IMG/VR virus record: IMGVR_UViG_2870464427_000001
DNA: 32,182 bases
Reading direction: 5' to 3' (one strand)
Source of the DNA: a virus
Taxonomy: Duplodnaviria > Heunggongvirae > Uroviricota > Caudoviricetes
How positions within the stretch are numbered: position 1 is the first letter of the stretch; every line of letters starts with the position of its first letter. Both the position numbers and the translations under genes were made by a program. The notes under the pieces are model-generated. The model ran no database searches, had not been told where the DNA came from, and saw only the letters and a program-made list of their open reading frames with translations. Below, piece after piece: positions 4,075 to 29,518 of the stretch.

Positions 4075-4374
4075 TTAGACATGGAACGCTACTCGCTTTC
4101 CTGTAGGAAGCTCAACATCCAGGCTTAATTTGCCTCCCATAGCTTCAACGTAACGCTTTAATGTCGCCAGCTTTAAATCATTTCCGCGCTGCTCCAGCTT
4201 TGTTACTGCTGGCTGGCTTATACCCATCGCCTCAGCAACCTGTTTTTGTGATAACTGGAGTTCTTCACGCATCATCTGCAAGCCGACCTCAAGAATCATC
4301 TCATCTGCCATTTCTTTAATTCGCGCCTGGCTTTCAGGTGAACGGCTGGCAATCACCTCATCTAATGTTCTCAT
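4075..4374 (-). CDS. higA: HigA-like antitoxin (XRE-family HTH)
   Basis: 99 aa with HTH LSQKQVAEAMGISQPAVTKLEQ; start overlaps the upstream toxin stop (TAATG at 4372-4376). Confidence 0.75.
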   Translation of the reverse strand: MRTLDEVIASRSPESQARIKEMADEMILEVGLQMMREELQLSQKQVAEAMGISQPAVTKLEQRGNDLKLATLKRYVEAMGGKLSLDVELPTGKRVAFHV

Positions 4375-4727
4375 TACTTGCTCTCCAGTGTGTTCAGATG
4401 TGCTGCAAACTCATCCTCAGCTATACGCACCAGTTTTTCATAAAACCGTTTATCGTTACTTTTGTCTCCTGCACAAAGAACGATGGCCCGGCGAATCGGA
4501 TCGAACGCATAAAAGGCTCTTATCGGACGGCCAGAAAACTGAACGCGAAGCTCTTTCATATTTTTGTACCGAGAACCTTTTACGGTATCGGCATATGGCC
4601 TGGGTAACTCAGGTCCGTAAACCTGTAGCTTTTTCAAATCAGCCAAAACCTTTTCCTGAAGAGCGTCTTCTTGCTCATTTAGCCAGTCGTCAAATCGCTG
4701 GCTAAAAAGTACCGTCCACATGCTCAA
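4374..4727 (-). CDS. higB: HigB-like toxin (RelE/ParE superfamily, Gp49-like)
   Basis: 117 aa; toxin-first gene order and translational coupling typical of HigBA; sequence (RFDDWL .. KELRVQFSGRPIRAFYAFDPIRRAIVLCAGDKSNDKRFYEKLVRIAEDEF) matches the family as recalled. Confidence 0.75.
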   Translation of the reverse strand: MSMWTVLFSQRFDDWLNEQEDALQEKVLADLKKLQVYGPELPRPYADTVKGSRYKNMKELRVQFSGRPIRAFYAFDPIRRAIVLCAGDKSNDKRFYEKLVRIAEDEFAAHLNTLESK

Positions 4728-5785: not shown

Positions 5786-5897
5786 GTTCGAAACGTGCCG
5801 TTTCGAAAAGGATGATCAGGCTGCTCCATGCCTCCGGCAAGTGCCGGAGGAGGTATATTTGAGCGTAGCGACTCGAACCGGCGCGAGCTTTAGCTCG
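5786..5897. other. cluster of three perfect short hairpins in an intergenic region
   Basis: ttcgaaacg-tgc-cgtttcgaa (about 5788-5808), cctccggca-ag-tgccggagg (5830-5849), gcgagc-ttta-gctcgc (5882-5897). The only ORF here (5532..5903) is low-complexity and rejected. Confidence 0.3.
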
Positions 5898-5929
5898 CTG
5901 CAAGGGCGAACATATTCACAGGCAAAGCC

Positions 5930-6130
5930 TGCGTAAGTTAAATAAAGAAAGTCTTAATAAAAGAAAGTGATTTTGCATTTATTTGTTTAGTGCATCTATT
6001 ATAAAAAACCATTTGCATATACATATCAAAACTGTGGATAACTTTATTAGCCGATGCCTGTGAAGGCGATATTTTTGCTGTGTTCAGGTTTAGAGAAAAT
6101 TAATTTAGATTGTTTTTTGAACAGATATTT
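5930..6130. other. origin-like AT-rich region downstream of repA (oriR candidate)
   Basis: About 200 bp of strongly AT-rich sequence starting roughly 50 bp after the repA stop, no ORF. The position matches IncFII oriR, which lies downstream of repA1. Confidence 0.5.
6033..6041 (-). promoter_or_regulatory. DnaA box (perfect TTATCCACA on minus strand)
   Basis: Plus strand tgtggataa at 6033-6041 is the reverse complement of the consensus DnaA box TTATCCACA, inside the AT-rich region. Confidence 0.5.
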
Positions 6131-6182
6131 TATTGCGACGTAGATAATCCTCCGGTAAAACCGGATTCATCATTCAGGTGGG

Positions 6183-7031
6183 TTAATGTTGGAGTGATTT
6201 CCAGGTCTTTCTTAACCTGTTATAACGCTGCTCAACGAGGGATCGTAAATATGCAAGGTCAGCACCAGGATACATGCCATCAGCAAATTCCTGGCTAACC
6301 TCTCTAGTGATTTGATGACGAAGTTCGGCCTCTCCCTTTTCCTGAACAAGACGCGCAGCTCTCTCCGCTGCTTTCTGTTTTGCCTTTATCTCTCTGGCTG
6401 TCTTCCTCTGACGCCATACATTCTCCATCTGCTCCTGAATAACAATACGCTTATAATCAGCCTCCGTTATCGCTTTTTTAAGCCGTTCGCTATTCTTCGC
6501 ATTGAAGTAATTAAGTTTCTGGCTAACCGCACGTCTCCATGCTTGTTCAGTAATACCAACGGTTTCCAGCAGTTGATCACGAATCTCTATTTTCGCTGGC
6601 CAATACTGTTTATTCACCCGATCCCAGCGACGTTCATAATCAATAAAACCTAACGCTTTCAGTTGCGACAACGCCCTTGTACAGCGTGTTATAGACTTGT
6701 TCCCAGCTTCGGATACGGTAGACAGGCCGCAAAAATCAGCCAACGCCTCAGCACTGGCCAGAACCCGCTTAGAAATGATGTTTACATGGTGCAAAATCGC
6801 AGCAATCACAGCATTAATCGCCCGACGACGATGCTCGTTTATCCGGCGCTTCCGCTCTGACGGCTGATTAACGTAGAACGCAACCTCACACGTAAGATCA
6901 CGACCATTAATGCGCTGTAAAGCATCAGATAACACTAGCGGCAGCTTGTGCGTATGGTGCTTTGGAGGCTGGAACTCCGGCGACAAATTACAAACGTAAG
7001 CGGAACGTAGAGACGGCATTGGTCTATCCAT
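6183..7031 (-). CDS. repA: IncFII-family replication initiator RepA (RepA1-like)
   Basis: 283 aa from the ATG at 7031. Segment RRRAINAVIAAILHHVNIISKRVLASAEALADFCGLSTVSEAGNKSITRCTRALSQLKALGFIDYE aligns with R100/R1 RepA1 as recalled. The in-frame upstream extension to 7163 runs through leader stem-loops and is rejected as the start. Confidence 0.8.
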   Translation of the reverse strand: MDRPMPSLRSAYVCNLSPEFQPPKHHTHKLPLVLSDALQRINGRDLTCEVAFYVNQPSERKRRINEHRRRAINAVIAAILHHVNIISKRVLASAEALADFCGLSTVSEAGNKSITRCTRALSQLKALGFIDYERRWDRVNKQYWPAKIEIRDQLLETVGITEQAWRRAVSQKLNYFNAKNSERLKKAITEADYKRIVIQEQMENVWRQRKTAREIKAKQKAAERAARLVQEKGEAELRHQITREVSQEFADGMYPGADLAYLRSLVEQRYNRLRKTWKSLQH

Positions 7032-7046
7032 ATGTTCGCTCTTGCG

Positions 7047-7117
7047 TCCACGGAAAACCAACGTATAATGGGAGTTGTCGAGGCGCCCATGGATTGTTGT
7101 TGTTGGTTTTCCGTGGA
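7047..7117. promoter_or_regulatory. 16-bp perfect inverted repeat in the repA leader, 15 nt upstream of the repA start
   Basis: tccacggaaaaccaac (7047-7062) and gttggttttccgtgga (7102-7117) with a 39-nt spacer; could sequester the repA RBS region. Confidence 0.45.
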
Positions 7118-7158
7118 TGTCGCAAGAAGCCCGCAGATTTATCTGCGGGCTTTTTGTT
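7076..7158 (+). ncRNA. candidate CopA-like antisense RNA opposite the repA leader
   Basis: Plus-strand promoter-like -35 TTGCGT (7043-7048) and -10 TATAAT (7064-7069), then about 80 nt ending in a terminator (gcccgcaga / tctgcgggc stem 7128-7149 plus T-run 7150-7158). Size and position resemble CopA of IncFII replicons. Boundaries are inferred. Confidence 0.35.
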
Positions 7159-7344
7159 TCCATATCTGGTCAGTTTCCAACCAGACACCCACAATCATAA
7201 CCACGTTACGTGGTTTTAAGAGAACTCTACCACAACACTTTCGGTCATGCACGAAGTCTCTCACTGATCGAACGATAATCCACCAGTAAAAGGATCTAAA
7301 TTGGATCTCGTTTTGCGAGCATCATACTACTGGCCTAACTCCAG

Positions 7345-7899
7345 TCAATGATTCCCAGCCGGAAACCTGCGGTAAAGCGTGGATAAGGTAACATCGAAGA
7401 TAATCGCTATCCGCTTACGTGAAACACCATTCGCAATAAGTCTTCCGATCTGTTCCCATTGCTCTGGTGCCAGCTTTGAGCGGCGTCCTCCTATCCTGCC
7501 GTTAGCCCTTGCCACCGCCAATCCTGCACGCGTTCTTTCAAGCATATTTTCCCGCTCCATCTCTGCGACTGCACTCAGCATCGTGTAGGCAAAGCGGCCA
7601 ATTGAAGTGCTAATTTTTATCCCTTCCGTAATCGAAATAAACTCAATGTTGTTTGATAAAAAATAGTTAAGAAAATCAACAAGATGAATCAGGGAACGCC
7701 CCATTCGGTCCAGCTTCCAGACAATAACCGTATCGCCCGGCCGTAACACCTTAAGTAGCTTATCAAGTCCTGGTCGTTTTGATTTAGCACCGGATATTTT
7801 ATCTTCAAAAATCCGGTCACATCCTAAACTCCTGAGCGCCTCCAGTTGTAATTCCAAATTCTGGTCAAAAGTTGACACCCTCGCATAACCATATTGCAT
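7345..7899 (-). CDS. serine-recombinase DNA invertase (Gin/Cin/Pin/Hin family)
   Basis: 184 aa; YARVSTFDQ catalytic-serine motif, VWKLDRMGRS, GRIGGRR, C-terminal HTH; aligns closely with Mu Gin as recalled. Confidence 0.9.
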   Translation of the reverse strand: MQYGYARVSTFDQNLELQLEALRSLGCDRIFEDKISGAKSKRPGLDKLLKVLRPGDTVIVWKLDRMGRSLIHLVDFLNYFLSNNIEFISITEGIKISTSIGRFAYTMLSAVAEMERENMLERTRAGLAVARANGRIGGRRSKLAPEQWEQIGRLIANGVSRKRIAIIFDVTLSTLYRRFPAGNH

Positions 7900-7963: not shown

Positions 7964-7989
7964 TTCGCAAAAACCTCGGTTTGCAGGAA
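7964..7989 (+). other. gix/cix-like inversion crossover site (left)
   Basis: ttcgcaaaaacctcggtttgcaggaa resembles the gix consensus TTATCCAAAACCTCGGTTTACAGGAA. A 25-bp stretch (7973-7997) is identical to the reverse complement of 10902-10926. Confidence 0.7.
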
Positions 7990-8877
7990 ACGGTAAACAA
8001 GGCTGGTAACGCCGTTCAGCGTTCCGGTGATAAAATGACCGGAGAACTGAAAATTGGCACGGTGAATGCGCTGCGAATTTTCAATGATGCCTTCGGTCTT
8101 ATTTTCCGTCGTTCAGAAGATTTTCTTCATTTCATTCCGACGGCTGAAGGACAAGGCGAAAACGGTGATATCGGCCCATTAAGGCCATTCGCTATAAATC
8201 TGAGAACAGGTGCTATATCTGTCAGCCACGGGGCCAAAATTGAAGGAGGTCTAGCTATTGGAGCTACTGATAACGCACTGGGTGAAAACTCCATTGTTCT
8301 GGGAGATAACGACACCGGATTTAGGCAAGATGGAGATGGTATTATTAGCTTCTATTCAAATGGTTCGCGCATCGGACATATTGATGAGTTAGGATTACAT
8401 ATTTATAAAGATATTGAATCTAATGGCAGCAATTTTAGATTAAAAGGTAATTACCGCCACCACATTACATTCGCCAACGAAGACGGAAGTATTCGTATGT
8501 TTTTGTGGAAAGATAAAGATGGTGATGGTGTTCATATTAATAATGGTTCAAGCGGTGGCGGTGATTTCGTTTTTAAAACAGATGGGGGATTTGCGCTGGG
8601 AAGTGGTGCGCAAGTTGCGTCTAATGGCGATATTTATGGTTCAGTGTGGGAAAACAACTGGTTAAGCACATGGCTGCATAATCATGTCGTTCGGGATATT
8701 CGTCTTGGCAGCATTGAATATAAAAACGTATGGCGCGACTCCGGCTTTGGCGATGCGTCAGGTTATGTTTTAACAGCCGCAATTAACAGCAATGCGGATG
8801 ATATTGTCGACACTGTTGCCAGAAGGCCAATTCAGAAATTGATTGGGGGAATATGGTATAACGTGGGGAGTGTTTAA
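7981..8877 (+). CDS. alternative tail-fibre C-terminal cassette (silent in this orientation; no own start)
   Basis: 298-aa ORF opening exactly at the crossover site (QETVNKAG..). Its C-terminus ([18 protein letters not shown]) parallels the active fibre C-terminus (ARPIQYCINGTWYNAGSI). Confidence 0.65.
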
Positions 8878-9434: not shown

Positions 9435-9968
9435 TCATTCTGGTTGTTCGGGAAACGTTACTGGCAGGCTGGAAGTGTCTGTAGATTCGACTTTCTGCGC
9501 AAAGAGCATCCACTCTGTTAATTTTTGTTTATTCTCGTCGGAAATGATGCCCAGCCGTAGCTGTGAGTCCCATAGCAGGGTTTTATCCCTGACAAGTTGC
9601 AACAGGCTTTGCTTTTCATTCTCTGCCTGCTGCCTCTGTTCCTCCTCGGTATAAGTTCGCTTTATCACTACGCCATCTTTGAACATCCATTTACCCGAAA
9701 TATCAGCCCGGCGATTTGCTGTAATATCAGGAACCTCAACGACGCTTGCGCCTTCTGGATTAATTGCTGAAACATCCTTTTCAATACAAATAATAACGCC
9801 GTTGTGGTCATAGACCATTTTCAACGTATCAGTCTGGAAATTCTTTTGTTCCTCATACCAGTTTTTTCCATCCTCTGAATAAAGCCATTTGATGTTAAAT
9901 TGTTTCGTTAGCTGGTACTGCTCCACTGTTTTAGGATTACCAGCGGTAATGTTTTTTAAGTGCATCAT
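9435..9968 (-). CDS. tail-fibre assembly protein (U/G-like)
   Basis: 177 aa, MMHLKNITAGNPKT..; immediately downstream of the tail-fibre gene. Confidence 0.8.
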   Translation of the reverse strand: MMHLKNITAGNPKTVEQYQLTKQFNIKWLYSEDGKNWYEEQKNFQTDTLKMVYDHNGVIICIEKDVSAINPEGASVVEVPDITANRRADISGKWMFKDGVVIKRTYTEEEQRQQAENEKQSLLQLVRDKTLLWDSQLRLGIISDENKQKLTEWMLFAQKVESTDTSSLPVTFPEQPE

Positions 9969-9970
9969 AA

Positions 9971-12247
9971 TTAAATACTTCCCGCGTTATACCAAGTCCC
10001 ATTAATGCAATACTGAATTGGCCTTGCCTGAGTTGTATCAATTAATTCGTCACGGTTCCCGTTAACTGAACCCGTAACGACATAACCTGACCTGTCAGAC
10101 CAGCCGGGACCATTCCATGTCTGAACAGATGACAGACCGCCAAGGCGAATACCTGTAATAAACCTTGAGTTACATTCTGCCTGCGTGTATGCACCAACAT
10201 CTCCCGCAGAGGGTTTGCGGGTCGTGGTGTAAAACTCTGACCAGTCAGCCTCAAATCCGTAACCATCACGCGCTGAACGATAATAAATACCGCCGTTCTT
10301 ATAATTCACACGGAACTGTACGGCAGGGCAACTCCCCTCGCTCATATTGAAATGGAGGATTAATGTCGATGCGCCACCAATATTTGCTTGATAGACCCCG
10401 CTATTCCAGTTCCAGCCAACAGCTTTATCATTTCCGACAGTGCTTCCTGTTTTCCCTAAAGCAAATGCAGGCTGCTGGTTTTTCGTGTTGTAGTCACGTC
10501 GCCAGCCAGGTAAATACCCTGAACCGTGGTTAATATATATAAATTGCGCATTCGTAGTGCCACCACCGCTAGAGGTACTCGGTGTGGTTATACGAATGGT
10601 CATGGCGCCTTTATTGCCCATAACTTCAATAACGCAACCCGCAAGGTGAATAAGTCCACATCCGGTGTCAGTAATAATTTTATTATTGCCGTATGACCAT
10701 GAGCATTTACACATCCAGTATGGATGATTGAAGGCCCACTGAGATTCCAGCCATTCAATAAATTGCGCCGTCGTCCAGTTTCCTGCACCTGTGCTAATAG
10801 AGCCATGAAAAGAGCGGCAAGCACCTATTGTTTGCGTAAATTTATCTTTGTTTGGAATATCTGCGCCGTTCTGGTTTTTCTGCAATGCGCCAGCAGCCTG
10901 ATTTACCGTTTCCTGCAAACCGAGGTATTCGATAACGGCGGAAACGGTCGCTTGAGCCAGAATATCCCGCCCGACTTTTGTCAGAGTTGCCAGGCTGGCA
11001 GTGTCATTCCCCGTAAAATACGGAAACCTGTCTGCCGCAGTAGCAAGCCCGGCCAGCGCCGTCAGGGTGGCATCTTTCGGTTGCTTACCCGCAAGCGCGT
11101 TAGTCATGGTGGTCGCAAAATTCGGGTCGTTGCCCAACGCCGCAGCCAGCTCGTTTAGCGTATTCAGTGCGTCAGGCGACGAGTCCACGAGGGCAGCGAT
11201 CGCAGCCATAACATAAGCCGTGCTTGCGATCTGAGTATTGTTAGTACCTTTTGGCGCAGTTGGTGTTGTTGGTGTTCCGCTCAGCGCCGGACTGTTCAGG
11301 GGCGCTTTCTTGTTCGTTTCATCCATTACCACCTTTACAGCTTTTGATGTCGCGGCCAGTGTTTCAGACGTGCTGTTGGTGGCGCTACTGAGCTGAACAA
11401 TCCCTTTTCGCGCTGTGGTAGCGTCCTGTGCGGTGTATTTAGCGTTAGCAAGGTCATATGCTGCCTTTACCGCCTTTGGCGTTGCTGCCAGCGTCTCAGA
11501 ATCGCTGTTAGTTGCGCTACTAAGCTGAACAATCCCTTTTCGCGCCGTGGTAGCGTCCTGTGCGGTGTATTTAGCGTTAGCCAGGTCATATGCTGCCTTA
11601 ACAGCCTTAGGCGTCGCAGCAAGCGTTTCAGACGTGCTATTGGTGGCGCTGCTAAGTTGAACAAAGCCTTTTGAGGTTAAAGTTGCATCAGGATGATTAC
11701 GTGATTGCTCATGTTTCACAATGGCTTGCTTAAGCCGCTTTGCTGAAACAGCAAGGGAATCATCTGTACCTGCATCAATTTCTTGTTCATTAGCAAATCT
11801 TGCAACCCCAACAACAGTTTCGGTCGCGGGAGGATTAATAAACTCAATATCACCAAATGTAATATTTTTAGTATCAAGAGTCTTAATTGCTATGTCACTT
11901 GATATTAAAGCAATAGTAGATGATGCTTTATTTATTATTGCTTGTTCTTGCGAGTATACAGCAAACAACGTTCCCTTATTTGTATACAATCCTATTGTAT
12001 GGACAACATACTCATCTTTACTATCATCCTTCGCCGTTACATGAATTGTATCAGGGGAAACAACTTTGCCACCTATTGTGGTAAGTCGTTTTATTTCGTC
12101 TGTTATATTTGTTTGTGAGGTTGACGTGACATAATATCTACTACCTAAACCAACAGAAACAATCTCAACTTTATTTGTTCCTGTTTTGTTGGCATTAACC
12201 AACTCCTGACGCCCGGCGTCAGTCATCGTAAATAATAATTTACTCAC
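9971..12247 (-). CDS. tail-fibre protein (P2 H / Mu S-like constant N-terminal part fused to a variable C-terminal cassette)
   Basis: 758 aa; long stretches match P2 gpH as recalled (DATLTSKGF..QLSSATNSTSETLAATPKAVKAAYDLANAKYTAQDATTARKG .. [13 protein letters not shown]); crossover site at codons 442-449. Confidence 0.9.
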   Translation of the reverse strand: MSKLLFTMTDAGRQELVNANKTGTNKVEIVSVGLGSRYYVTSTSQTNITDEIKRLTTIGGKVVSPDTIHVTAKDDSKDEYVVHTIGLYTNKGTLFAVYSQEQAIINKASSTIALISSDIAIKTLDTKNITFGDIEFINPPATETVVGVARFANEQEIDAGTDDSLAVSAKRLKQAIVKHEQSRNHPDATLTSKGFVQLSSATNSTSETLAATPKAVKAAYDLANAKYTAQDATTARKGIVQLSSATNSDSETLAATPKAVKAAYDLANAKYTAQDATTARKGIVQLSSATNSTSETLAATSKAVKVVMDETNKKAPLNSPALSGTPTTPTAPKGTNNTQIASTAYVMAAIAALVDSSPDALNTLNELAAALGNDPNFATTMTNALAGKQPKDATLTALAGLATAADRFPYFTGNDTASLATLTKVGRDILAQATVSAVIEYLGLQETVNQAAGALQKNQNGADIPNKDKFTQTIGACRSFHGSISTGAGNWTTAQFIEWLESQWAFNHPYWMCKCSWSYGNNKIITDTGCGLIHLAGCVIEVMGNKGAMTIRITTPSTSSGGGTTNAQFIYINHGSGYLPGWRRDYNTKNQQPAFALGKTGSTVGNDKAVGWNWNSGVYQANIGGASTLILHFNMSEGSCPAVQFRVNYKNGGIYYRSARDGYGFEADWSEFYTTTRKPSAGDVGAYTQAECNSRFITGIRLGGLSSVQTWNGPGWSDRSGYVVTGSVNGNRDELIDTTQARPIQYCINGTWYNAGSI
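10910..10935 (-). other. gix/cix-like inversion crossover site (right, inside the tail-fibre gene)
   Basis: Minus strand reads ttatcgaatacctcggtttgcaggaa (23/26 to the gix consensus), inverted relative to the left site. Confidence 0.7.
11320..11680 (-). repeat. in-frame tandem repeat (about 129 bp unit, roughly 2.7 copies) encoding phage-fibre repeats
   Basis: Near-identical DNA blocks visible directly; encode the repeated peptide KGIVQLSSATNS.SETLAATPKAVKAAYDLANAKYTAQDATTAR. Confidence 0.7.
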
Positions 12248-12277: not shown

Positions 12278-12859
12278 TTAGCACTCGCCAATTAATCGTA
12301 CATAGGACACCGGCTGACAAGCACCAACAATACCAACACCACCAGAAACATTGGCAGCTTGCGAAAATGTAAATAATGTTCTTGCCGACTTTGCGCTCTT
12401 GATACTTCTTAACGTATCTTCCAACATCTCTTTCGAAGGAACGGCACCATCAAAAGAGTTAATCGAAGCAACAATTGAGGCTGTATATGGTTCGCCAGGT
12501 GGTGATGTTTCAAACCATTCTGTTATGTTTACCTCTCCACCCAAGCTATTTACTACATCTTCAACCGCTGCCCTTGTACCCTTTATTCGCTTTGTTCGTA
12601 TTATTGATTTAAAAACAGAACGCTTTAACGATACAGGCCAACTATCCCTCCATGTATCAGCATTCCATTGCCAGGCTAAATGATCGAGAACAACTGAGTC
12701 CAGGTTATCAACAACGCTATATATTTCTGTCTTATATATTAAATTGTTAATTGCTTGTAGTTCATCATCGATAGCTTTCGACATAGCTATCACGTTGGGA
12801 TCTCTAGCTAAGTTAGGAGGTAAAACATCCAACAAGCTAACATTAAAGATATCAGCCAT
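12278..12859 (-). CDS. baseplate/tail-fibre attachment protein (P2 gpI / Mu gp48-like)
   Basis: 193 aa; LAWQWNADTWRDSWP .. NITEWFETSPPG parallels P2 gpI motifs (LAWAFSVDRWDEKWP .. NVTEWWENSDPPG). Confidence 0.7.
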   Translation of the reverse strand: MADIFNVSLLDVLPPNLARDPNVIAMSKAIDDELQAINNLIYKTEIYSVVDNLDSVVLDHLAWQWNADTWRDSWPVSLKRSVFKSIIRTKRIKGTRAAVEDVVNSLGGEVNITEWFETSPPGEPYTASIVASINSFDGAVPSKEMLEDTLRSIKSAKSARTLFTFSQAANVSGGVGIVGACQPVSYVRLIGEC

Positions 12860-13975
12860 CCTCTAACCCCGCATACTGGCAATTTACATTTCTCTCTCTG
12901 GCGACCTGCGTCTCTCCAACCACAGTAAATACAGGACTTGATATTTCTAATCTTTTAGCCCCGGCATTTTTTAAACGTTGAATAATTTCATCTGGATTTA
13001 TATCTCTTCCCATAACCGAACGTTGCCATTGTTTATACTCATCAATAGCTTTCTCAACCTCACTTTGAATTAATGTTGTTCTGTTTTTGTCCGATGAGTT
13101 AATCCAGTATTTAATTATTATATCGTATTCAATGCTCTCTGGTTTCTTAACAAGAACTTTATCTGTGAATGGTCGAATATTAGTTGCAGAGAGAACGCTA
13201 TTTATCTGCTCCAATAGTTCATCAGAAGGTATATCTCCGTTCTCTAACAAAGAACGGATTTCTACAGTTCCGGGCGATGGTGTATATACATTCACATCTT
13301 TTATATTCTGATTGGCTGTTCTTGTCCAATATTTATAAGAATCCTCCGGCCCTGCTGTAGACAGTTTTTCCGGCGACAGTTTTATTCTTTCAGCATAATT
13401 ATCATCTGACTCTGTATCAGCACCAGAATTAGATGTTGTTAGATTCCTTACGCTGGAAACATACGGCAACGGAGTCACCAACTCATTTATTTGCCCTGGT
13501 AAAAAGCCATTCCCCGATAAACCAGGTATAACAGCATATCCTGAGACTGTACCAACTGTTTTCCCAGCAGGTATTTCCAACAAAACATCTGTTTGGAAAA
13601 TAACACCATTTCCAGTTGAAACTTGAGTGCCAGAAGGTATTGTATATATCCCGATAATTTTGTTGACAGATTAAACTCAAATGTAGTCAAGGCAGATTGA
13701 GCTTCCAGCCTAGGCGTATCCGTCAGATAGCCTATATGATCGAGATATTCACCCCCACCATATGTAAGAAGGTTTTGTTTTGCAGAAAAATCGATAGCTT
13801 TTCTTTGCTGTATAATAATCTCACACAATGACAAGATGAATAATCTACGTGGATCAGCAGGTGCTAATGTTTCACCTGTTATACTCTCAAAAGCCCTGAT
13901 TGAACGAGTTGTTATATCAGTCGGGTTAGAATCTGCGAAAGTAATATCTGGCAAACCACCGCGCGGCAACGTCAT
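12852..13975 (-). pseudogene. baseplate J-like protein (P2 gpJ / Mu gp47-like) interrupted by a single-base frameshift
   Basis: Two overlapping ORFs (13487..13975 and 12852..13583). The upstream frame turns to junk after ..TTFEFNLS while the downstream frame reads good protein from 13670. One extra A in the A4 run (plus-strand T-run 13658-13661) would give one roughly 375-aa protein. Confidence 0.6.
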
Positions 13976-27662: not shown

Positions 27663-29518
27663 CTATATGGTTACGCCTTTACTTATAACTCTACGGCGTC
27701 TTCTACGTATACCTGACGAGTTCTGCACATACACATTACCTCGCATTTCCTGTTCGGCAAGCCAGTTAAAATTAGGGTTCAGAATTTCCATCGCGGCAGT
27801 TGCATAGTTACGGCAATCAAGAGGCTCGTTACGCTCGTAGACTTTCACCCACTTTTCTTTTGTCTGCCCATTTTTATATTCAAATATTTTTTTCTCTGAT
27901 AATAATCCTTTAAAGTATTCGGTATCATATCCTCTGTCAGAATCTAATGGGAAATGCATATAACCAGGACCAGGATCATGTAGTTTAATTCTTGCCATGA
28001 TGGTCCCTTTACCATCATCAACCCCAAATTAAACAACATAGCCCCCACACGGTTATTATTACTTGGCTTTCCTATAAATGGTAAACCTACCCCACCACGC
28101 CCCCTGATAGAGTATATTCGCCTTGATTCTCTCGGCTTAGTAAAGCGATATACCTCTGTCGTAAAATGCCCACCAGAGTCAATACAAACGGAAGAAATCT
28201 GTAATTTTCGACCGTCACGGAATGACCAGCTACGGAGTAAGTATTCATCAAGTTGTTTCCAGACAACATCTTGTGCGGGATCACCTGGGAATATTTTATA
28301 TTCTATCCCCCATGACTCCTTACCTTTTCCCCAACCGACCAATTCACAAACTAAATACGTGTCCTGTACGTCAACACCAGCACTTAACAATAAAACATCA
28401 TCTGGTAAAAACTCTTCAAACCTTATTCTGCGTTGCAACAAGTATTCAGGATCGATATCGTCTTTAGCATCCTCTTTCCATGGCTCACCCAGCTTAAGGT
28501 TAATAAACTCCATTAATCCATTTTTATCGCGGTTTCTGGTTGCTTCCGTAAATTCTTCAACCAGCTCTGACAATGCAACCCACGGGGAGTAAAGACTGTT
28601 AATATGAAAACCAACAATACCTTTAACTCCAGTATGTTCAGCTATCCATACCCCCTTCGCCAACCAATCAACGTCTGGTTTACCAGATCCGCGCATAATC
28701 CCGCCGCACTCACAGCACTCATATCTGGCCGTTTCCGGTAACGCCTCACCTGAATCGCTCTTATCCCATCTGACTTGCGACCATTTCATCACCTGCATGG
28801 TGCCACAACATGGGCAAGGAACATGGTAGTAACGCTGATCGGAGAGCTTAAACCACTTGTGGATTTTGCTCGTTTCCTCCAAAACAGGAGTAGAAACAAA
28901 AACTTTCTTACGATTATGAAAGTTGGTAGTACGCTGAATACCTAGTTTTAGTGGGTCGCCCTCCTGCGTCACACCGTAACGATCAATCTCATCAGCTAAC
29001 AGTATTCGAATTGGCCTGGATGCAAGACCTGCTGGGGAATTAGCACCAACAAGTGCTATATATCCACCAGCGTAATGCTTCATACGTATAGTCGTGCTGG
29101 ACTTTTTGGCTGCACCGCGCCCCTCTTTCCCTTCATGCAGCTTGTGTTTCAAACCTGGGGAATATTTGAACGTCGGATCAATACGCTCTTTTGAAAAAGC
29201 CTCAGCCGCCTCTACCGTTGGATAAATCATCAACTGAGGAGATGGCTCCTGATCTGCAAAGTAACCCATAACATTTAGCTGTAATTCGGATTTACCAATT
29301 TGCGAGCTACATTGCATCACTACTGTTTCTGTATCAGCGTCACCAATAACATCCATTGGTTCACGCAAATATGGCACTCGGCTTGTACGCCACGGCCCTG
29401 GCTCTGGAGACGTTCCCGGCGCTACATGACGATACTTATCAGCCCATTCGGAAACAGTTAGCCGTGATTTAGGGCGAAGCGCACGGAAAAAAGCGGTGCT
29501 CCATACTGTTTCGCCCAT
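27663..29518 (-). pseudogene. terminase large subunit (lambda gpA family) split by a single-base frameshift
   Basis: ORFs 27944..29518 and 27663..27998 overlap. The first frame turns to junk after ..SNNNRVGAMLFNLG and the second reads ..VDDGKGTIMARIKLHDPGPGYMHFP. One extra G in the G4 run (plus-strand C-run 28022-28025) would give one roughly 619-aa protein. Confidence 0.75.

Follow-up and report, generated by a model that had tools for sequence, protein, structure and literature searches.

The 32,182-nucleotide (nt) stretch of tailed-phage DNA analysed here (IMG/VR virus record IMGVR_UViG_2870464427_000001), which we call the window throughout, carries at positions 5880-7348 a replication module built around a repA gene, and we consider it very probable, at roughly 85%, that this module is the replicon by which a temperate myophage of ~48 kb maintains itself as a free, circular plasmid, which makes the element a phage-plasmid. 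An earlier note made from the letters of the window had put an IncFII-type RepA replicon at 5930-7160 and had suggested that the element is maintained outside the chromosome; the location stood, but the unit is wider than was thought, reaching from the origin hairpins at about 5880 to the repA promoter at 7348. What is directly observed comprises the family to which RepA belongs, a conserved layout of the origin, hairpins that covary, an occurrence on plasmids only, the lack of an integrase, and the presence of near-identical records among sequenced phages.

Plasmid and phage records of the element

In the replicon region the window shares 98-99.9% identity with 62 plasmid records in PLSDB, all of them non-mobilizable and most of them circular and 46-52 kb in size. 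Among these is the 48,488-bp circular Escherichia coli plasmid of strain ATCC 25922 (NZ_CP009073), which is the complete reference element for the comparisons below. The replicon was present in 70 of 5,426 complete E. coli genomes (~1.3%), at a total of 81 places, every one of which is on a plasmid and none on a chromosome; extrachromosomal maintenance, which the earlier note had preferred over integration, thus holds for the family, and this search was the decisive one on that question. The same repA is also present on IMG/VR viral contigs. A scan of species-representative genomes for the replicon returned only a spurious Streptomyces match, and a search of solved structures returned nothing useful.

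The statement in the earlier note that 32 kb of sequence show no integrase was borne out: the window holds no open reading frame (ORF) of integrase size or of an integrase family, and none is annotated in the complete reference element of 48,488 bp. Because the window shows only 32 of about 48 kb, one could still envision an integrated prophage with its integrase and attachment sites in the part that is not shown. Such an arrangement is extremely improbable given that none of the 81 places in complete E. coli genomes is chromosomal, that the reference supplies the remainder of the element and has no integrase there, and that the window is colinear with the closed circular ATCC 25922 plasmid, running uninterrupted across position 1 of that record.

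The phage side of our reading is supported by three 49-kb Yersinia phage records (vB_YpM_39, vB_YpM_41 and vB_YpM_44, for which the stated host is Yersinia pestis EV76), since these genomes, deposited as phages, are 98-99% identical to the replicon region, repA included; they cover 86-91% of the first 25 kb of the window (megablast against phage records). Their existence points, if indirectly, to the production of infectious virions. Tail, head, portal, protease and terminase genes stand in the window on the same molecule as repA and the origin, and the reference carries lysis genes, a full virion module (head and tail), ParA, and ParB-like proteins. As the earlier note had described, the replicon sits directly beside a serine invertase (7345-7899), after which come tail, head, and terminase genes. 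Its description of a complete structural region is correct as to the set of genes, but in the window copy the large terminase and baseplate J genes are frameshifted.

These frameshifts lend some weight to a different account, in which this copy, or the E. coli family as a whole, is a plasmid carrying a defective prophage that makes no virions, so that the term phage-plasmid would be an overstatement. At 13649 the window has CCC where the ATCC 25922 plasmid has CCCC, and baseplate J is split in two (12852-13583 and 13487-13975); at 28025 it has CCCC as compared to CCCCC, and the large terminase is split likewise (27663-27998 and 27944-29518). The two 1-nt deletions are either sequencing errors or inactivating mutations. 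Moreover, a preprint with related contigs from induced prophages (vB_EcoM-613R2 and 473R2) did not regard them as plasmid prophages. However, single-base homopolymer differences are typical of sequencing errors, both genes are intact in the reference and in most family members, the genomes deposited as phages of Y. pestis EV76 match at 98-99% with repA among the genes retained, and the genes for virion, lysis and immunity are all still present, so we regard a defective prophage as an unlikely explanation.

The RepA initiator

The gene at the center of the module is the following.

6183-7031, minus strand: repA, 282-amino-acid (aa) replication initiator of the IncFII/IncL-M superfamily (PF02387, NF040977, phrog_7060); start inferred from alignment with 277-aa homologues; alternative start at ATG 7019 (278 aa)

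The minus-strand ORF at 6183-7163 encodes 326 aa when read from its first ATG. Residues 53-319 of this long ORF match the Pfam family IncFII_repA (PF02387; E = 1e-43, 150 bits against a cut-off of 22.9), and the NCBIfam model NF040977 (RepA_IncFII_LM) is matched at profile positions 1-266 of 266 with 232.2 bits against a cut-off of 70, but the protein fails the IncFII RepA equivalog model TIGR03474, at 78.8 bits and a cut-off of 446.9. When compared by tblastn to plasmids annotated as having an "incFII family RepA", it shows ~31% identity over 45% of the query (E ~1e-7), and in PHROGs it belongs to phrog_7060 (5e-123), which is listed under "unknown function". The check proposed in the earlier note, a protein search against IncFII initiators, therefore returned a significant match, and the label "IncFII-type" is sound at the level of the superfamily only, and not for the classic IncFII RepA1. 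Because RepA passes PF02387 and NF040977 while falling far below TIGR03474, and because the locus is without CopA, copB and the PK-repBA pseudoknot and has no MOB-suite type, the replicon is, judging from its sequence, a distinct and untyped clade of the IncFII/IncL-M superfamily.

The start of repA deserves comment. Homologues of 277 aa, with 58-86% identity, begin at the position of M49 in the long ORF (ATG 7019). Codons 1 to 44-48 of the long ORF are unconserved and overlie conserved RNA hairpins, and the closest relatives share a Shine-Dalgarno-like AAGAG (7039-7043) placed 7 nt before ATG 7031; for these reasons we place the start at 7031, and the RepA coding region is most likely 6183-7031, a reading of 282 aa to which the "283-aa RepA" of the earlier note corresponds. 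RefSeq (e.g., NZ_CP009073) annotates RepA as 326 aa, and the phage records label the gene "hypothetical protein". The RefSeq model, whose ATG 7163 lies within the conserved leader hairpins, is probably over-extended.

The replication origin

Four features were mapped downstream of repA.

6151-6165, minus strand: post-stop hairpin TCCGG-TTTTA-CCGGA, ~20 nt after the repA stop, at the position of the IncFII CIS; conserved in 8 replicons
6033-6041, minus strand: DnaA box TTATCCACA, at +142 relative to the repA stop; the sole exact match in the window
5935-6032, no strand assigned: AT-rich part of the origin, GC 0.214 as compared to 0.431 for the whole window
5883-5933, minus strand: pair of GC-rich hairpins (5917-5933 and 5883-5898), both conserved, at the origin's edge; candidate signal for priming or for single-strand initiation

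The order after the repA stop is thus CCGG hairpin, run of A residues, DnaA box, AT-rich stretch, and the pair of GC-rich hairpins, and both the perfect DnaA box and the AT-rich region that the earlier note had placed downstream of repA are confirmed. Across the 8 replicons the post-stop hairpin shows a change from CCGG/CCGG to CCAG/CTGG, and a similar CCGG...CCGGAGG hairpin is found at +22 in the classic IncFII locus used as our control (L010). A single DnaA box is insignificant taken alone (0.4 copies expected, and one or more copies in 31 of 100 shuffles); it gains meaning because its offset from the repA stop is conserved in related replicons, lying between +133 and +143 in those whose RepA is 58-85% identical, and at +176 in the control. 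Three ATGCA motifs (6014-6018, 5991-5995, and 5974-5978) that are conserved across 12 replicons lie in the AT-rich part, together with a tandem 15-16-nt A/T repeat at 5938-5968, and no iterons, in the sense of multi-copy direct repeats, were found in the origin region. We presume that RepA binds and DNA melts within 5935-6032.

The two GC-rich hairpins at the far edge, which are flanked by the invariant sequences TGTGAATATG, CGCCCTTGCAGCG and GCGCCGGTTCG, covary: in 12 replicons, 5 of 13 base pairs show changes on both sides and 96% of cells are paired, a score and a degree of pairing that none of 500 shuffles reached and that compare with 17-47% pairing in shifted controls. The block is kept even in L011, whose RepA is only 37% identical. 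Priming signals lie near IncFII origins, and by comparison with them these hairpins may serve priming. BLAST found no significant similarity between the origin of the window and that of the classic IncFII control; the resemblance to the IncFII origin is one of layout only.

The repA leader and its predicted countertranscript

Upstream of repA, two features were mapped on each strand.

7321-7348, minus strand: candidate repA promoter, -35 TTGACT (7343-7348), 16-nt spacer, -10 TATGAT (7321-7326); 10 of 12 consensus positions; directly after the invertase stop
7032-7314, minus strand: repA leader of ~280 nt with two GATCC motifs and hairpins at 7199-7215, 7129-7150, and 7044-7120; conserved in the alignment of related leaders
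7042-7069, plus strand: candidate antisense-RNA promoter, -35 TTGCGT (7042-7047), 16-nt spacer, perfect -10 TATAAT (7064-7069)
7074-7159, plus strand: predicted antisense RNA (countertranscript) of ~85 nt, consisting of a 5' hairpin and a terminator hairpin, in silico

Both hexamers of the repA promoter are kept in 5 of 6 related leaders. The sense strand of the leader folds at -118 kcal/mol (z = -7.3), and on this strand the base of the long hairpin 7044-7120 takes in part of the Shine-Dalgarno AAGAG. The GATCC motifs, 11 nt apart (7303-7307 and 7292-7296) and just downstream of the repA -10, are present in all 6 related leaders; this pair could represent Dam/SeqA sites or an operator.

Antisense-like architecture, as the earlier note had recognized, is also what the in silico analysis recovers, with a two-hairpin fold of the plus strand, a U-run on one side only, and a conserved TATAAT promoter. 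For the plus strand between 7036 and 7168 the fold obtained is a pair of hairpins (-68 kcal/mol, z = -8.4), and for the predicted RNA itself it is likewise two hairpins (-41.1 kcal/mol, z = -6.4). Its terminator is composed of GCCCGCAGA (7129-7137), TTTA, and TCTGCGGGC (7142-7150), followed by TTTTTGTTT (7151-7159); on the sense strand, AAAACAAAAA stands before the hairpin 7129-7150, and an intrinsic terminator complete with its U-run (7151-7159) therefore exists on the plus strand only. The consensus promoter scanner, which needs 4 of 6 matches per hexamer, missed the antisense promoter because TTGCGT matches at only 3 of 6. Our own scan, with a looser threshold for the -35, found TTGCGT-16 nt-TATAAT in the window and, at the matching position of the alignment, in L003, L009, L006, and L021, and the -10 TATAAT is kept in L008 as well (58% RepA identity). 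Compensatory changes were seen at 3 base pairs among 5 sequences, one being an A:U to G:C change in the terminator stem and the other two lying in the long hairpin. We thus predict from sequence that an antisense RNA of ~85 nt is made from the plus strand of the leader.

The likeness to an IncFII leader extends to this predicted countertranscript, but CopA and copB are both absent. CopA (Rfam RF00042) was not found in the window at the gathering score or at E<=10, whereas the control scores 90.4 bits; the PK-repBA pseudoknot (Rfam RF01089) was not found in the window at E<=10, whereas the relatives L005 and L011 score 49.3 and 56.7 bits, respectively. Nor is copB (RepA2) present upstream of the leader, where 7164-7344 holds only short unconserved ORFs before the end of the invertase at 7345; the classic control locus has copB (regulatory repA), tap, and repA annotated. 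A candidate leader ORF of 56 codons (TTG 7194 to TAG 7024), without an ATG start, stops 5 nt before ATG 7019, and an ATGA overlap between the stop of the leader ORF and the start of repA is found in L003, L009, L008, L004, L007, and L005 but not in the window. A sense-strand hairpin that takes in part of the Shine-Dalgarno sequence would fit R1-type logic, under which repA is translated only after some event upstream, and it is this event that the antisense RNA prevents. The step targeted could be translation itself, translation by way of the leader ORF, or the stability of the transcript.

Weight of the evidence

Several observations count against the reading of 5880-7348 as the antisense-controlled replicon of a phage-plasmid. 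The window is a 32-kb fragment, with its circularity read from the family and the reference, and the frameshifted copy that it represents may survive as a plasmid only. MOB-suite assigns no replicon type to the reference plasmid. As to the leader, the -35 of the countertranscript promoter agrees with the consensus at 3 of 6 positions only, the covariation comes from 5 sequences that are ~90% identical, no Rfam antisense or pseudoknot family reaches threshold in the leader or gives a match even at E<=10, and the frame of the leader ORF is not kept in L003, L006, and L009, its starts varying among close relatives too.

Alternatively, repA and the origin could be an inert passenger, a remnant of recombination with a plasmid, while some other, unrecognised module replicates the element. 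That a related RepA (63% identity) occurs on a conjugative plasmid with a type IV secretion system (T4SS; L005), and others beside Mu-like tails (L004, L008, and L023), does imply a mobile module, and many early genes of the element are without known function. However, RepA is intact and its 90% cluster comprises 525 member sequences on 505 contigs; the noncoding parts, origin as well as leader, show both conservation and compensatory changes, which argues for selection; no other plasmid initiator is annotated across the 48.5 kb of the reference element; and the PHROG matches of the early genes amount to a partial primase-like and a resolvase-like protein. A passenger role is thus very unlikely, and we retain the module as the replicon by which the phage is kept as a plasmid.

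Spread of the replicon

The nearest RepA relatives, at 80-85% identity (L003, L006, L009, L020, and L021), belong to the same kind of element and come from Salmonella and Klebsiella aerogenes. At ~60% identity, L004, L008, and L023 stand beside Mu-like baseplate and tail modules on ~45-kb contigs, in contrast to the P2-like tail module of the present element, and so does L007 in a Citrobacter contig. Because relatives are found with unrelated tail modules and, in the case of L005, on a conjugative T4SS plasmid, the module has evidently moved between different phages and plasmids. A leader of the IncL-M type, with PK-repBA, was observed at 9869-9989 of L005 and at 4855-4969 of L011, a KPC-carrying Citrobacter plasmid. 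The leader of the phage-plasmid subclade differs from both; the control region has thus been exchanged, with RepA and the hairpins of the origin retained.

In L004 and L007, both with Mu-like tails, an ORF of 162 aa (9516-10004) lies directly upstream of repA and ends in an ATGA over the repA start. It has a weak match to Pfam IncFII_repA and resembles the central part of RepA, and it has the appearance of an incomplete RepA paralogue whose translational coupling to repA takes over from that of a short leader peptide.

Comparison with known plasmids and phage-plasmids

The classic IncFII replicons of R1 and R100 (copB, CopA, tap, repA, and oriR) share with the window the Pfam family of RepA, the lack of iterons, and an origin downstream of repA in which a post-stop hairpin, a run of A residues, TTATCCACA, AT-rich DNA, and GC-rich hairpins follow in the same order, as seen in the control L010. 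They also have a short countertranscript in the repA leader, which in the window is a prediction, with a similar two-hairpin shape and a size near that of CopA. Against this, RepA has only ~31% identity, over 45% of its length, and does not reach the equivalog model; Rfam CopA finds the control (90 bits) and not the leader of the window, whose candidate countertranscript is non-homologous; a phage invertase stands upstream where copB would be; no tap was recognised, the 56-codon leader ORF being a candidate only; and the origin has no BLAST-detectable similarity to that of the control.

The I-complex and IncL-M replicons (pMU604 repBA, pMU720, and ColIb-P9 repYZ, with antisense RNAI, a leader peptide, and a pseudoknot) are approached from another side. 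RepA passes NF040977, two relatives (L005 at 63% and L011 at 37%) carry the PK-repBA leader, with leader ORFs whose ATGA covers the repA start, and the origin hairpin block is common to the window and L011. The leader of the window itself is without PK-repBA, and the candidate ORF in it ends 5 nt short of ATG 7019, has no ATG start, and differs in frame among the closest relatives.

With the phage-plasmids P1, N15, and SSU5 the element shares the general plan of a temperate tailed phage kept as a plasmid, with a replicon of its own, ParA, and a toxin-antitoxin pair. The likeness to P1 includes a C4-type antisense RNA by an anti-repressor and a Cin/Gin-type invertible tail-fibre segment of ~87% DNA identity, but outside the tail-fibre segment there is no DNA similarity, and the replicon of the window is neither IncY nor p0111, which are the replicons of P1 (PMC7969092). 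The eight curated phage-plasmid groups (P1, N15, SSU5_pHCM2, pKpn, pSLy3, pMT1, pCAV, and AB) span 55-111 kb (Table 1 of PMC11652158), and by megablast the element matches them only in a tail-fibre and invertase segment common to P1, P7, D6, and Mu, equal to 8-9% of the query. At ~48 kb as compared to 55-111 kb, it lies by sequence and size outside all eight groups. IncFII types are already listed for some members of the P1 and pMT1 groups (PMC11652158; PMC7969092).

Three other identities were considered and rejected: the PlasmidFinder replicon p0111, which belongs to P1-like elements of ~95 kb; the AnCo3/pSTM_phi family, whose elements are SSU5-like; and the pseudolysogenic Yersinia phage HQ103, which has an unrelated 32-kb genome.

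A model for replication control

Under the mechanism that we propose, a sigma-70 promoter at 7321-7348 would produce a repA transcript that passes through the structured leader of ~280 nt. A countertranscript of ~85 nt, made constitutively from the plus strand (promoter 7042-7069, terminator 7129-7159), would pair with this leader, and the pairing would limit RepA synthesis and thereby set copy number, as it does in IncFII and I-complex plasmids. RepA, presumably acting in cis, and host DnaA, bound at 6033-6041, would then open the adjacent AT-rich DNA at 5935-6032, whereupon replication would run unidirectionally, its priming probably taking place at the hairpins at 5883-5933 or close to them.

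P1 and other classical cases have separate plasmid and lytic origins. More speculatively, one could envision that in the present phage the IncFII-superfamily RepA and its origin are the sole means of initiating replication, serving both low-copy maintenance and lytic amplification, with loss of the antisense brake on induction converting the origin into a runaway one. A related thought is that the same clade, which appears to move among phages whose tail modules are unrelated and also to a conjugative T4SS plasmid, may be a shuttle module between phages and plasmids. We hold this pair of ideas to be doubtful, and offer them as such.

Status of the family

Plasmid and phage entries for the element already exist in public databases, and although the phage-plasmid reading is supported, elements of this kind are already known. 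We found no paper on the 48-kb family (vB_YpM_44, CP009073, and the ATCC 25922 phage-plasmid), in a search that did not cover the screen lists of Pfeifer et al., and none describing the three Yersinia phage records; the sole related mention is a preprint that lists the partial relatives vB_EcoM-613R2 and 473R2 as carrying ParB and infers no plasmid stage. The contribution made here is therefore a precise map of the replicon (RepA start, candidate antisense RNA, DnaA box, and origin hairpins) and not a new principle, and it leaves the known workings of such elements unchanged.

Phage-plasmids are frequent carriers of resistance and virulence genes, and typing tools cover few of their groups. 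The present family, which occurs in ~1.3% of complete E. coli genomes and is carried by the quality-control strain ATCC 25922 among others, has no MOB-suite type, a RepA of "unknown function" in PHROGs, and the annotation "hypothetical protein" from phage annotators. With a precise map of the replicon the family would become recognisable in surveillance and easy to test at the bench.

Genes beside the replicon

Two flanking features were assigned from domain matches.

7345-7899, minus strand: serine DNA invertase of the Hin/Gin/Cin type (Pfam Resolvase 4e-44, HTH_7 3e-13), directly upstream of the repA promoter
4075-4727, minus strand: Gp49/HigB-like toxin (4374-4727) and helix-turn-helix (HTH) antitoxin (4075-4374); Pfam Gp49 5.7e-23, HTH_3 4e-10; in RefSeq, RelE/ParE toxin and HTH protein

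The invertase serves an invertible tail-fibre segment and not integration. Inverted repeats of 50 nt (7970-8019 and 10880-10929; 82% complementary) bound this segment of ~2.9 kb, which contains alternative C-termini for the tail fibre, together with fibre assembly genes in opposite orientations, and is a host-range switch of the Mu G and P1 C type, ~87% identical to the segments of P1, Mu, and D108. Beyond it follow the tail, head, portal, and terminase genes.

On the other side of the replicon, the toxin-antitoxin pair is likely, from its domains, to be a post-segregational killing module that aids plasmid maintenance. It lies 1.5 kb from the origin, and relatives carry HicAB or ParE-type pairs at the same position, which suggests a swappable slot for addiction modules beside the replicon. 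Farther away, an isrK-like RNA (398-471; 68 bits) and a C4 antisense RNA (496-584; 70.8 bits) lie upstream of an ORF6N/Rha-type anti-repressor (822-1964), a layout that is that of the immI immunity region of P1 and P7 (c4-icd-ant) in an element that is otherwise unrelated to P1.

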